A stretch of DNA of 64,000 nt from a virus. The translations under genes were made by a program, and so were the position numbers. Positions 37,064 to 51,225 of this stretch are shown here, piece by piece. The notes under the pieces were generated by a model that saw only the letters and a list, made by a program, of their open reading frames with translations, ran no database searches and had not been told where the DNA came from. Where the stretch lies: IMG/VR virus record IMGVR_UViG_3300021963_000051, positions 1 to 64,000 of that record; one strand, given 5' to 3'. Position 1 is the stretch's first letter. The number at the start of each line of letters is the position of its first letter.

Positions 37064-37223
37064 AGAATTTATAAAAGAAGATACTAAATTTACCAGCGGC
37101 AATGCAGCAGCAGGAACTCGTGCTCGTAAAGCTCTAGCAGAAATTTCTAAAACCGCCAAGGCTAGACGCAACGAAATTACAGAAGAAAAAAATGCTCGTA
37201 AGGAAGCTAAGGCAACCAAATGA
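37026..37223 (+). CDS. Histone H1-like protein, Hc1 family
   Basis: KFTSGNAAAGTRARKALAEISKTAKARRNEI matches the Hc1-family GNxAAGTRARK motif. Confidence 0.8.
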   Translation: METTTTQLQKLFEEFIKEDTKFTSGNAAAGTRARKALAEISKTAKARRNEITEEKNARKEAKATK

Positions 37224-37945
37224 TTGAAAATAAATTCAACGACTTATGTTGCAAAGTATGCGGTGGAAACACTAAAGTTTATGGTATAGTAGACTTCAAC
37301 AAAAGTTGCGAGGAATTGAATGGTAAATTTTTACCTTACTCAGGGCAAGCTGTTTATTATCATCAATGTACCAACTGCCAATTTATTTTCACAACAGACT
37401 TTGACAATTGGACATTGACAGATTTCTCAGATAAAATCTACAACGATGATTATGAATTAGTTGATCCCGAATATTGGGAAACTAGACCTAAAAATCTAGC
37501 TAAATGGATTCAACCCTTACTTAACGGTAACAAAGAACTAAACATTTTTGATTATGGTGCAGGAACCGCGGTGTTTGGTGATGAATTAGAAGATCAGGGA
37601 TATACAGTTGATTCTTGGGATCCATTATGGGAAGACCCGTTAGACGAAAGTAAAAAAAATTCTTATGATGTTGTTACAGCATTTGAAGTCTTAGAACATA
37701 GTCCTACTCCTTTTGAAACAGCTAAGGAAATAGCTGATTTCAGTAAAAAAGGAGAAGGACAATTAGTTATTATGACTTTAGCTAATGATATCATTAGAGG
37801 TGAAGGGGTAAACTATTGGTATTTGGCTCCAAGAAATGGACACGTTTGTATGCATAGTAATAAAAGTATAGAAATTTTATTCGACAAATTAGGAATGTAT
37901 GTTCAACATCTAGCTCCAAATACTCATATAGTTTCATGGAAATAG
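37220..37945 (+). CDS. Class I SAM-dependent methyltransferase with an N-terminal zinc ribbon
   Basis: CKVCGG...CTNC, IFDYGAGTA (motif I), YDVVTAFEVLEH, WYLAPRNGHV. Confidence 0.85.
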   Translation: MIENKFNDLCCKVCGGNTKVYGIVDFNKSCEELNGKFLPYSGQAVYYHQCTNCQFIFTTDFDNWTLTDFSDKIYNDDYELVDPEYWETRPKNLAKWIQPLLNGNKELNIFDYGAGTAVFGDELEDQGYTVDSWDPLWEDPLDESKKNSYDVVTAFEVLEHSPTPFETAKEIADFSKKGEGQLVIMTLANDIIRGEGVNYWYLAPRNGHVCMHSNKSIEILFDKLGMYVQHLAPNTHIVSWK

Positions 37946-38380
37946 ATGTCATGGTATTATAAAAATGAAATAATAACCGAATTACCTGACACCACTGTAG
38001 GATTTGTATATATTATAACAAATAAAATTACAGGCAAAAAGTACATAGGCAAAAAATTATCTAAATTTAGCAAAACCACATACAAAACAATAAAATTAAA
38101 AAACGGCACAAAGAAAAAGAAACGAATCAAATCAAAAATAGACTCAGACTGGCAGACATATTACGGCTCAAACGATCAACTTTCAAAAGATGTAGCACAA
38201 TTAGGCACAGACAAATTTCATAGAGAAATATTATATTATTGTAAATCAAAAGCAGAATGTTCATACATTGAGGCACGAGAACAATTCACAAGAAAAGTAT
38301 TAGAATCAGACGAATATTACAACGGACAGATTTCTGTTCGTGTCCATGGCTCCCATATTAAAGGCAAATTACTCGGTTAA
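37946..38380 (+). CDS. GIY-YIG endonuclease (stand-alone catalytic domain)
   Basis: GFVYIITNKITGKKYIGKK...YYGS...FHREIL...E...YYN, with a Lys-rich insertion. Confidence 0.9.
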   Translation: MSWYYKNEIITELPDTTVGFVYIITNKITGKKYIGKKLSKFSKTTYKTIKLKNGTKKKKRIKSKIDSDWQTYYGSNDQLSKDVAQLGTDKFHREILYYCKSKAECSYIEAREQFTRKVLESDEYYNGQISVRVHGSHIKGKLLG

Positions 38381-38793
38381 AGGCTAGCGCAGGCTAAATT
38401 CATGCGCCCTAGACCTGGACTTCGTGTCGCAGGGATGGATCGCTCACCGCCGAAGTGAGAACTCAACCACTACCCTACCCGGATGAAGATCACTAATCGC
38501 CGTGATTTGGTTGTTTGAATAGGTTAAACCCAAGGCAAAAAGACGCTCTTAATAGAGCACGTTTTACAAGTATGATAGCGTATACGTGTAAAGCCGCCGT
38601 TGTATGAAGACTGGGATGGAGGTACCGGACAACCGCCTCTGCTAAACACCCTAACGCTGTGTGACTATGCTACTCAGATGATGCCAAACTTCGCCCGCCC
38701 TGGGCGAAGTGTGACCACTTAATCTAGATGATACTAAAAGACAAAAACGCTTCGAGTCTCGTAGACGAAGAAGCGAACGAACGCAGTTCGTTC
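38381..38793 (+). ncRNA. Candidate large structured non-coding RNA (alternatively a structured DNA element)
   Basis: GC-rich island in AT-rich DNA with at least 10 helices found by eye, e.g. GCGCA/TGCGC, CCTG-GAC/GTC-CAGG, CTCAC/GTGAG, CAACCA/TGGTTG, GCTCT/AGAGC, TTTACA/TGTAAA, ACTTCGCCC/GGGCGAAGT, GAACGAAC/GTTCGTTC. No credible ORF. Strand is inferred from the operon. Confidence 0.7.
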
Positions 38794-38820
38794 ATAAATA
38801 TTAAAATATCAATACAAAAA

Positions 38821-40233
38821 ATGAAATTATCAAATATTATTATAGAACAACATTTAAAAGATGGATTAATTCTATTAGAGTCTGTATGTCAAAATCTGAC
38901 TGAGGAACAATCTAGGATTATTAAGGGAATTTATAATGAATTTAAACCTTTAATAGAAGCAAGTTTAAGCCAAGATCAGATACTACAAGTATTCACAGGT
39001 GTTGAACAACAGGCAACAGGATCGGGTAATAATAGGACACTGATAGGTAAAGGGGTTGATCTTAAAAATCAAGTAAACGATATAATCAATAAAACAGGGC
39101 AATGGCTTCAAAATACCGCTCCGGTACAGTTCGCTGATCAGAAGTTTGAAGAACTTAAAACAAAAGTTGCTGCTAAGTTCCCTAACTTAGATCGTCAACT
39201 TACTGATCTTGGTACCTGGATGAAAGACAATCCAGGTAAAAGTGCTGCTATCATTGGCGTATTAACTGCTATTGCTTCATTGGCGGGTGGACCTGCAGGT
39301 GGTGCTATAGCTGGACAGGCTCTTAGGGGTGCTGCTGAACTTATAAAAGGTGAAAAACTTTCAACTGCTGTTGGAAAGGGTATTAAAACTGCGGCATTAG
39401 GTTATCTTTCAGGTAAAGCATTTCAGATGCTTGGCGACTGGGTAGGTAGTTTTAGAGAACAATCAATACCATTTGGTCCGGAAAATACTGGCCTTGAAAA
39501 AGTTAGTTGGGGTGCTCGCAGTTCGATTACAGGTCCTGGAATGGAATGGACAAGGACTACACAGGGATTTAACGCATTAGTTCGTCCTCAAGAAGCAGAA
39601 GTCATTAGAACAGCAATGGCAGGAATCAAAGCAGGAGAACCTGGTGCATTTGATACATTGTATAAGGTAGCAAGAGAAGTAAACTCAAAAGAATATAAGC
39701 AGGCCTTAAATGGTGTAGTTCAAGGAGCCTGGGAAGCAGCTAAGTCTAATGATAGTATACTTCAATTTATTAACGTTACAAAACAAGGATTGCAAGCAGG
39801 TGCGCAAGGTGCTGTTGCAGCGTCAACTGGCAGCAAATCTACTACAAAAACAGAAAGTTTAACTAAATCCACAATAAACAAATTATTTTATAATGTAGAT
39901 CGAGCCAATATGGTATTAGATGAAGGTATATTTGATAAGATTAAACAATTTGGTCAAAACTTAACCACTAAGATCACCGCAGATAAATTAAAAACAGCGT
40001 GGACTAAGGCAGGGTCTCCTACAGATAGCGATCAAGTTGCACATTTTTTAAAACAGGCCGGTGTAAATGACACTATAATTTCTAAGGTGTTTGGTGATAT
40101 GAATATTTCTTATTCGGGAAAAACAACACCTTCAACTAACAATCAAACGGTAAATACCAATGATATTGTAGTGAGAATACAAAAACTAACTCCTGCGCAA
40201 CAAAAAGAAATTTTAGCCTTACTAGGGAAATAA
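38821..40233 (+). CDS. Probable internal head (ejected) protein; start revised to 38821
   Basis: Late motif TAAATA at 38795-38800 precedes ATG 38821 (MKLSNII). LLES, LIEA and LDEG protease-type sites; Gly/Ala hydrophobic segment. Confidence 0.6.
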   Translation: MKLSNIIIEQHLKDGLILLESVCQNLTEEQSRIIKGIYNEFKPLIEASLSQDQILQVFTGVEQQATGSGNNRTLIGKGVDLKNQVNDIINKTGQWLQNTAPVQFADQKFEELKTKVAAKFPNLDRQLTDLGTWMKDNPGKSAAIIGVLTAIASLAGGPAGGAIAGQALRGAAELIKGEKLSTAVGKGIKTAALGYLSGKAFQMLGDWVGSFREQSIPFGPENTGLEKVSWGARSSITGPGMEWTRTTQGFNALVRPQEAEVIRTAMAGIKAGEPGAFDTLYKVAREVNSKEYKQALNGVVQGAWEAAKSNDSILQFINVTKQGLQAGAQGAVAASTGSKSTTKTESLTKSTINKLFYNVDRANMVLDEGIFDKIKQFGQNLTTKITADKLKTAWTKAGSPTDSDQVAHFLKQAGVNDTIISKVFGDMNISYSGKTTPSTNNQTVNTNDIVVRIQKLTPAQQKEILALLGK

Positions 40234-50727: not shown

Positions 50728-50799
50728 TAAATATAAAGTCTTTATGATTTATGCGGCACCCACCGCGTAGGGCATAGAACGCTCAATAAGGAGAAACAA
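50728..50799 (+). promoter_or_regulatory. Late promoter plus structured 5' leader of the 141-aa gene
   Basis: TAAATA at 50728-50733; nested stems TTTATG/CATAGA and TTATGCGG-caccca-CCGCGTAG; AAGGAG SD. Confidence 0.6.
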
Positions 50800-51225
50800 A
50801 TGGGACGTCCATTAAAGAAAAAATTTTTTAGCGCAAATGCTAATAATAACATTAAAGTACAATTTCATAACGGTACTTCAAGCGTAGCTGGTTACATTGT
50901 TCACCAAGTAGGTGCTCGTAGATTTCAGTGTAGTGACGGAACAAATCGAAGAGTATGTAAATTAGTGAACAAAGCCTCTGCAGCTATTGCGGCTGGGGAA
51001 ATGACCATTACAGTGAAACAAGATGATGGTACTATAGATCAAGTTCTTAAAATTTCAGGAAGAATGCTAACAACCTTAAATGCTGGTGGCAATACGATTC
51101 GTAGACCTTGGAATTTCAGTACTTCAACTAGTGACAGTTATGTGCAAGTTGAAGAAGCTGGTACTTCGACTAGCGCAGTTACAACAGCAACTGGTGCAAC
51201 CAACCTTGAAGGTGATGCTCAGTAA
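50800..51225 (+). CDS. Putative capsid-associated (decoration) protein
   Basis: MGRPLKKKFF start, YIVHQVGARRF...VCKLV; own late promoter, strong SD and terminator, directly after the capsid gene. Confidence 0.6.
   Translation: MGRPLKKKFFSANANNNIKVQFHNGTSSVAGYIVHQVGARRFQCSDGTNRRVCKLVNKASAAIAAGEMTITVKQDDGTIDQVLKISGRMLTTLNAGGNTIRRPWNFSTSTSDSYVQVEEAGTSTSAVTTATGATNLEGDAQ

Follow-up and report, generated by a model that had tools for sequence, protein, structure and literature searches.

Twin words that vary identically in the full-length Polynucleobacter-1 RNA of giant aquatic phages could form a parallel-stranded, homo-paired helix

The window, by which we mean the whole 64,000-nucleotide stretch of viral DNA analysed here, contains a structured non-coding RNA in which a short module, GTGTGAC-N10-AGATGAT, occurs twice. 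The module sits in a stretch of 440 nt without genes, flanked by a 144-aa GIY-YIG gene and a 470-aa open reading frame (ORF). A preliminary description had pointed out that the two copies lie 50 nt apart and are bridged by a perfect hairpin, and this arrangement is confirmed and proves to be conserved in relatives. The stretch that encodes the RNA has a G+C content of about 50%, compared with about 30% in the flanks and in the phage genome, and positions 38382 to 38793 fold with a z-score of -3.55. In 147 unique viral sequences, the RNA is conserved over its whole length, with limits at 38382 and about 38793. The features of the locus, and of the module within it, are the following.

37946-38380, + strand: 144-aa GIY-YIG gene, neighbour of the RNA (PF19835, 1.8e-31), with conserved catalytic residues
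38382-38793, + strand: whole structured RNA of about 415 nt that holds the module, delimited by G+C, folding, conservation and covarying helices
38382-38516, + strand: 5′ domain, Rfam Polynucleobacter-1 (RF01718; cmscan 105.7 bits, gathering score 37)
38575-38581, + strand: 5′ strand of helix A, AUAGCGU, in long-range pairing with 38654-38660
38654-38660, + strand: 3′ strand of helix A, ACGCUGU, which takes in the initial GU of the first GTGTGAC
38659-38682, + strand: first copy of the module, GTGTGAC-TATGCTACTC-AGATGAT
38661-38665, + strand: junction word 1, GUGAC, core of the first 5′ box; conserved, with C, U or A as its last letter
38666-38671, + strand: variable part of the first ten-nucleotide segment (N10-1), UAUGCU, 5′ arm of a weak hairpin, H1
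38672-38675, + strand: lead-in of word 1, A-CUC, invariant (147/147)
38676-38682, + strand: twin word 1, AGAUGAU, with the same letters as word 2
38688-38710, + strand: central hairpin, ACTTCGCCC/GGGCGAAGT, between the two words; perfect, 8-9 pairs
38709-38732, + strand: second copy of the module, GTGTGAC-CACTTAATCT-AGATGAT, exactly 50 nt from the first
38711-38715, + strand: junction word 2, GUGAC, nearly invariant
38716-38721, + strand: variable part of the second segment (N10-2), CACUUA, for which no partner was found
38722-38725, + strand: lead-in of word 2, A-UCU, invariant (147/147)
38726-38732, + strand: twin word 2, AGAUGAU, with the same letters as word 1
38748-38792, + strand: two terminal 3′ hairpins that end the RNA, neither with a U tract

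The GIY-YIG protein shows 55-92% identity among phage relatives, and its gene is located upstream of the RNA in 132 of 147 phage loci, directly in 119 of these and one gene away in 13. It occurs in none of the 61 loci examined from a second clade of relatives (clade 2), and no such RNA was found beside the GIY-YIG orthologues of cultured phages (Melnitz, Variovorax, cyanophage). Any partnership of the gene with the RNA is putative, and we describe it as a neighbour. In many cyanophage records (e.g. NC_006884 PSSM4_172.1) and in PHROG 447, the orthologues are labelled 'NAD synthetase', which looks like an inherited misannotation. A Methyltransf_23-domain protein is encoded at 37220-37945 (+), between SbcC-like and GIY-YIG genes, and other small genes are seen in relatives. 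On the other side of the RNA, the ORF was called at 38728-40233, its start being placed by the ORF finder at an ATG within twin word 2; the true start is probably the AT-rich in-frame ATG at 38821. The 470-aa product has no Pfam or PHROG match and no relatives in viral contigs. A second orphan RNA motif, Rfam freshwater-2 (RF02980), is present in the window at 50731-50802 (+), with 55.8 bits against a gathering score of 49.9.

No tRNA or tmRNA was found at the RNA stretch, and a group I intron was rejected because there is no Rfam match to one even at E = 10 and because the nuclease is a conserved free-standing gene. About the first third of the RNA matches positions 1-141 of RF01718. This 141-nt model ends at 38516, and the module begins 143 nt further, at 38659. 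The Polynucleobacter-1 motif, an orphan family in Rfam, dates from 2010 (Weinberg et al. 2010, PMC2864571), and most of its examples lie downstream of a gene like cyanophage PSSM2_218 (supplement of PMC2864571). The flanks of the 2010 Stockholm alignment hold the twin words in a Polynucleobacter chromosome and in GOS scaffolds. In all seven testable viral loci with the exact pattern, the Polynucleobacter-1 domain is found 137-195 nt upstream of the module, and it is also found upstream in 7/7 clade-2 loci. The module is an undescribed 3′ extension of Polynucleobacter-1 that is present in all relatives examined, and the ~415-nt RNA is the full-length Polynucleobacter-1 RNA. The 3′ part of about 275 nt, the twin words and the identity rule given below are absent from the Rfam model and were not found in the literature searched.

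The two hairpins at the 3′ end are supported by covariation, in 38751-53/38770-72 and at 7/7 pairs of 38776-82/38786-92. The sequence CATAAATA lies directly past the last hairpin, at 38793-38800, and relatives carry TATAAATA at the same place; this is the T4 late promoter consensus, to which CATAAATA is similar. The downstream gene therefore probably has its own late promoter, with the RNA ending before it.

The exact double pattern is present in 8 IMG/VR contigs. An anchor that was blind to the boxes, consisting of the 5′ and middle domains, fetched 88 contigs with 64 unique complete RNAs, and every one of these 64 carries the module. A second viral scan, in which the variable letters were left free, contributed more than 119 further contigs, giving 147 unique full RNAs in all, and a metagenome scan for clade 2, with all seven word letters free, yielded more than 120 contigs and 75 unique RNAs. 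As a negative control, the clade-2 flanks were used in a viral scan, which returned only two unrelated sequences, with words that differ from each other. In genome contigs, the 5′-anchor pattern gave no match, and the twin-box pattern gave six true matches on small MAG contigs together with four chance matches; a blastn search of the phage collection with the RNA gave no match. Shuffled sequences contained 0.35 pattern matches on average, and 6 of 100 shuffles reached two. The real support for the module comes from conservation: hundreds of sequences from aquatic phages and from islands have kept the twin boxes. No further copy of the module was found in the 64-kb window with two mismatches allowed, and two genomes of 345-355 kb that are 99-100% complete hold one copy of the RNA each.

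The clade-2 loci have a different setting. In five of them (L230, L238, L252, L264, and L271) the RNA adjoins a divergently transcribed DUF6641 gene, and in L238 and L264 a small tyrosine integrase gene (Phage_integrase, 188-189 aa) lies on its other side. A tRNA is present in L238, and L252 contains a group I intron match. These loci look like small integrative islands or satellites that have this RNA in common with giant phages. The RNA is present as a single copy per genome in giant T4-like phages of aquatic habitats, and it is found as well in freshwater bacteria, on small islands that bear an integrase. This hints at a signal common to phages and elements that may exploit them.

The pseudo-symmetric two-site architecture proposed for this non-coding RNA is real and conserved, and both copies of the module follow the same plan: the 3′ strand of a helix, GUGAC, 6-9 variable nucleotides, an A, three pyrimidines, and the 7-nt word. 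In helix A, which precedes the first copy, all seven pairs covary, each with 2-4 pair types and at least 88% canonical pairing in 147 sequences. The initial two letters of the first box vary (GU, AU, AA) inside this helix, and its covariation indicates that the initial GU of the first GTGTGAC is helical. The central hairpin, with compensatory changes in three of eight predicted pairs and a variable loop, has a 3′ arm that terminates in the initial GU of the second GTGTGAC. The flanking boxes, first described as identical, are not invariant, the first GT of each GTGTGAC being the end of a helix and AGATGAT varying in both copies together. The additional RTGA(T/A) words that had been noted near 38482, 38570, and 38602 exist, and the one at 38570 belongs to helix A. 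A third word-like string, GGAUGAA at 38481-38487, is located inside the Polynucleobacter-1 domain, where the Rfam consensus reads GGAcGaa. The exact twin 7-mer is present a third time in 13 of the 147 RNAs, the listed cases being at 38481-38487.

The preliminary description had proposed to test whether the boxes are invariant while the two N10 segments vary. The alignment gives a different picture: AGATGAT varies, always alike in both copies, and the last four letters of the segments, A-CUC and A-UCU, do not vary at all. In N10-1, the 5′ half forms an arm of a hairpin, since it is complementary to the sequence right after word 1 in relatives (UAUGC/GCAUA, GUGAG/CUCAC), with a complementarity of 3.83 within the same sequence versus 3.23 across sequences (z = 5.4); in the window, an arm of hairpin H1 is degenerate (GCCAA). 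For N10-2, a comparison of the same kind detected no complementarity to any part of the RNA. With invariant lead-ins, half of N10-1 paired and N10-2 lacking a partner, the N10 segments are not free guides. Searches for targets of the N10 segments and words, adjacent or single, gave nothing beyond chance in the 112-kb record or in 680 kb of related loci, and in two relatives that are 99-100% complete the matches were no more numerous than those of a reversed-pattern control. The parallel behaviour of the two AGATGAT copies points instead to pairing of one box with the other.

The most distinctive property of the module is that the two words are the same in nearly every RNA, although the word itself changes. 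They are identical in 63 of the 64 unique RNAs fetched with the box-blind anchor and in 147 of 147 when the variable letters were left free, while about 15 different words are used across the family. In clade 1, the words are AGAUGAU, GGAUGAU, GGAUAAU, AGAUAAU, GGAUGAA, AGAUGAA, AGAUGAG, GAAUGAU, and GACGAA; GACGAA, the only natural GAC word, occupies both boxes of one RNA (L048). The sole clade-1 exception (L078, IMGVR_UViG_3300036671_000262) combines GGAUGAU with AGAUGAU and differs at the terminal position 1. In this RNA, both junction words read GUGGC in place of GUGAC. On a tree that leaves out the boxes, the word of clade 1 has undergone at least 41 changes, mostly A-to-G transitions. 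Independent pairs of sequences in which word 1 differs at position 1, 5, or 7 show the same change in word 2 in 17/17, 9/9, and 5/5 cases, respectively (p = 1.5e-5 for position 1). Position 5 of the same box is unchanged in 14 of the 17 pairs that differ at position 1, so the coupling runs from each position to its counterpart in the same polarity, and inheritance of the word as a block is ruled out. Complete identity was found for just three of the 34,191 pairs of variable columns, 38676/38726, 38680/38730, and 38682/38732; the next pair in rank reached 0.925.

Clade 2 extends the rule to other letters. Its words (AGCGAAA, GGUGAAA, AGAGAAA, GACAAAA, AUCAAAA, and AACGAAA) are fully identical in 64 of 75 RNAs and agree at positions 2-6 in 73 of 75; in nine of the mismatched pairs the difference is confined to a terminal letter, and in one it is C versus U inside the word. 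Changes number 10, 6, and 6 at positions 2, 3, and 4, where the two words agree in 74-75 of the 75 RNAs. Taken together, the two clades indicate that the identity rule holds for all seven positions somewhere in the family. The clade-2 flanks in the Stockholm alignment read ACUC-AGCGAAA and AUCU-AGCGAAA with GUGUAG as junction word, and the commonest clade-2 word stands in the context A-GCGAAA-G. The lead-ins CUC and UCU differ from each other in every one of the 147 RNAs. Gene conversion, like block inheritance, could be rejected because these letters beside the words are never alike and because position 1 is uncoupled from position 5.

No complementary partner of the words was found within the RNA by a mutual information (MI) scan, a wobble-tolerant 7-mer scan, or the comparison of same-sequence with cross-sequence complementarity, and the upstream GIY-YIG mRNA contains no covarying partner. 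No residue of the GIY-YIG protein tracks the word (MI of at most 0.45 bit). Readings of the words as stop codons (URA), as CsrA (GGA) or Hfq sites, or as anticodon mimics were each rejected, since each fails on some word variants.

The best explanation is that the twin words are neither guides nor kink-turn boxes and are the two strands of one tertiary element. That they pair with each other in parallel is, judging from the sequence comparison, about an even prospect. An unpaired junction strand, continuing from the 3′ end of a helix, would carry each word; these two strands would lie side by side, both running 5′ to 3′, and each base would pair with the identical base of the other word. The resulting A.A, G.G, and U.U homo pairs, with cross-strand stacking at GA steps, would form a parallel-stranded zipper of seven pairs, which may hold helix A, the central hairpin, and the 3′ hairpins together as a compact, pseudo-symmetric core of the 3′ domain. 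Written as RNA, the strand pair would be r(ACUCGGAUGAU) with r(AUCUGGAUGAU), the window itself carrying the AGAUGAU versions. Homo pairing in the same polarity would give in-register identity, independence of the positions, freedom from a third partner, tolerance at the ends, and purine-rich words with GA steps, all of which are observed.

A structural model for such an element is available from synthetic DNA. In crystals, the oligonucleotide d(ACTCGGATGAT) is a parallel duplex held by eight symmetric homo pairs (Tripathi, Zhang, and Paukstelis 2015, PMC4330391), namely C.C+, G.G through the sugar edge, A.A through the Hoogsteen edge, and T.T, and the GA steps show cross-strand stacking. The paired region runs from C4 to T11; ahead of it, C2 and U3 remain without a partner and A1 is intercalated in a second duplex (PMC4330391). 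NMR and native gels confirmed the parallel duplex in solution, the change from GAT to GAC is isomorphous, and d(CGAA) and d(GCGAAAGCT) are named as parallel-homoduplex motifs (PMC4330391). All 11 letters of d(ACTCGGATGAT) are those of the A-CUC-GGAUGAU variant of segment 1, and the clade-2 word in its GCGAAAG form contains the CGAA motif. More generally, the natural word variants follow the grammar of the known formers (GA steps, GAY, CGAA, and A runs). Identical letters in the same polarity, as expected of the strands of a parallel homoduplex, were found in 63/64, 147/147, and, at internal positions, 73/75 RNAs, and the rare mismatches are mostly terminal or an internal C versus U, as a duplex would allow. 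Read from the sequence, the connector between the words measures 43 nt and includes a hairpin, which is long enough for a parallel arrangement.

Other features fit this arrangement less readily. The flanking pyrimidines always differ (CUC versus UCU), and the zipper would thus begin abruptly. Folding also predicts word 1 as part of the loop of a weak hairpin. In addition, the RGAU of word 1 is able, according to RNAalifold, to pair with the AUCU just ahead of word 2; the A-UCU lead-in being invariant, this pairing gives no covariation signal. We infer that the helix is formed in the phage by the RNA, or by the same-sense single DNA strand; the covariation is the same for both and does not tell them apart. 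On these grounds, our confidence that the element represents the first natural parallel-stranded, homo-base-paired helix, revealed by in-register identity covariation, falls a little short of even. Less likely, by analogy with the crystal, the invariant A four letters upstream might intercalate into a second such helix. This could lock head to head two RNAs or, at a signal shared by phage and island, the displaced DNA strand of an R-loop.

The same identity could arise if both words were exposed and bound two copies or subunits of a single trans-acting partner, such as a host RNA that reads them by base pairing or a dimeric RNA-binding protein. Two identical sites are what a shared reader predicts, as in the two nut boxB sites of lambdoid phages, and the preponderance of A-to-G transitions fits a pairing with wobble intermediates, as does the apparently unpaired state of N10-2 and word 2 fit exposure. 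We nevertheless consider docking of this kind rather unlikely. No complement of the words was found in cis, in the phage's own record, or in two complete relatives, and no residue of the neighbouring GIY-YIG protein tracks the word. With about 15 words and at least 60 word changes, each change would need a third, matching change or a switch of host. A U in the partner tolerates both A and G, so boxes of mixed type would be expected to be common, and they are almost absent. Finally, the match of the words to known parallel-duplex formers would be a coincidence.

It is far less probable that the words compete for one invariant G/U-rich strand in a bistable switch and are kept identical by the need for equal strength. 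The strand UGUUUG at 38512-38517, for example, fits both words in no fewer than 88% of sequences, and a U opposite a purine requires no covariation of the third strand. However, the helices would consist mostly of G.U wobbles, the strand is partly taken by the covarying helix 38464-69/38508-13, and neither position 7 (U, A, or G) nor the clade-2 words GACAAAA and AUCAAAA could pair with UGUUUG. A little less probable still is that the words mark a pair of equivalent sites of cleavage, or that they bound a 50-nt unit which template jumping copies again and again, a process for which the ends must be identical. Identity of the words without a third partner fits such processing or templating, and direct repeats around a hairpin recall the repeats of type III antitoxins and the template ends of DRT2-type RNAs. 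Against this, no reverse transcriptase (RVT_1) was found in the 112-kb record or in five relatives, two of which are 99-100% complete, and unit expansion is not seen: there are always exactly two modules, no array, and no copy of the unit elsewhere in the genome. The least probable reading is that of a dual guide with two 10-nt guides between kink-turn-like boxes for an effector, perhaps the adjacent GIY-YIG nuclease, a domain-only protein with intact catalytic residues and no DNA-binding domain that adjoins the RNA in 119/147 phage loci; it is contradicted by the four invariant letters of ten in each N10, the partial pairing of N10-1, the lack of targets, the failure of the kink-turn rules, searches for Nop, L7Ae, and IS110 genes that found none, nuclease residues that do not follow the word, a whole clade with the RNA and no nuclease, and cultured-phage nuclease orthologues without the RNA.

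If the parallel pairing of the twin words is true, it would add a new type of helix to natural RNA and would link a motif of DNA nanotechnology to biology. Structure-prediction and covariation tools seek complementary changes alone, and an element held by identical changes is therefore invisible to them; in-register identity covariation could then serve as a search rule for more elements of this type.

Among known systems, several resemble the phage RNA in outline and differ in detail. A template RNA of the retron or DRT type would be expected to have an RVT_1 gene in its genome, and none was found in the 112-kb record or in five relatives. Box C/D sRNAs and kink-turns, to which the preliminary description had compared the module, likewise have short GA-containing boxes that occur twice with segments of about 10 nt between them. 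In box C/D sRNAs, however, the C box (RUGAUGA) is 5′ and the D box (CUGA) is 3′, whereas the order in the phage RNA is reversed, with the UGAC-type box first, and its 3′ word has variants such as AGAUGAU, GGAUAAU, AGCGAAA, and GACAAAA rather than RUGAUGA. The flanks of the module show no covarying complementarity, so that the canonical C-stem that a kink-turn has beside its 3-nt bulge and tandem G.A pairs cannot form; with the word taken as bulged strand and GUGAC opposite it, -1b/-1n, read from the sequence, are C/C or U/C. The comparison with kink-turns consequently does not hold. No Nop or L7Ae genes (PF01798, PF01248) were found in the 112-kb record, which is itself only about 30% complete. 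IS110 bridge RNAs and the tigRNAs of TIGR-Tas systems also present two short variable segments in one structured RNA, and the two loops of bridge RNAs share identical core letters. The phage RNA differs from them in that neither an IS110 recombinase (PF01548) nor a Nop-domain Tas gene was found, in that it occurs as one copy per genome with no array, and in that its variable segments are without targets and partly structural. An IS110 bridge RNA adjoins a DEDD recombinase, whereas the neighbours of the phage RNA are a GIY-YIG gene and, in clade 2, DUF6641 and a tyrosine integrase.

Polynucleobacter-1 (RF01718) is the same RNA, with a score above the gathering threshold and a model that omits the module, and the family is redefined here as the 5′ third of a ~415-nt RNA. 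For the 3′ domain, the literature searched contained no precedent of a natural RNA with a parallel homoduplex of seven pairs, and the only parallel RNA duplex found there is that of poly(A) (PMC5737284). The poly(rA) duplex has symmetric A.A pairs and needs low pH or ammonium (PMC5737284). The clade-2 words similarly end in A runs, although poly(rA) is a homopolymer and not a sequence-specific element of a folded RNA. A further comparison is with the parallel homo-paired DNA duplexes, d(ACTCGGATGAT), d(CGAA), d(GCGAAAGCT), and d(GA)n. These are synthetic DNA oligonucleotides that associate between molecules at high concentration, whereas the phage case would be intramolecular, within one natural transcript, and the fourth letter of the segment differs between the two phage strands (C versus U), unlike in the d(ACTCGGATGAT) homoduplex. 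The 11 letters are the same in both, and the 7-nt word falls inside the part that is paired in the crystal, C4 to T11, with the preceding A, C, and U unpaired there.
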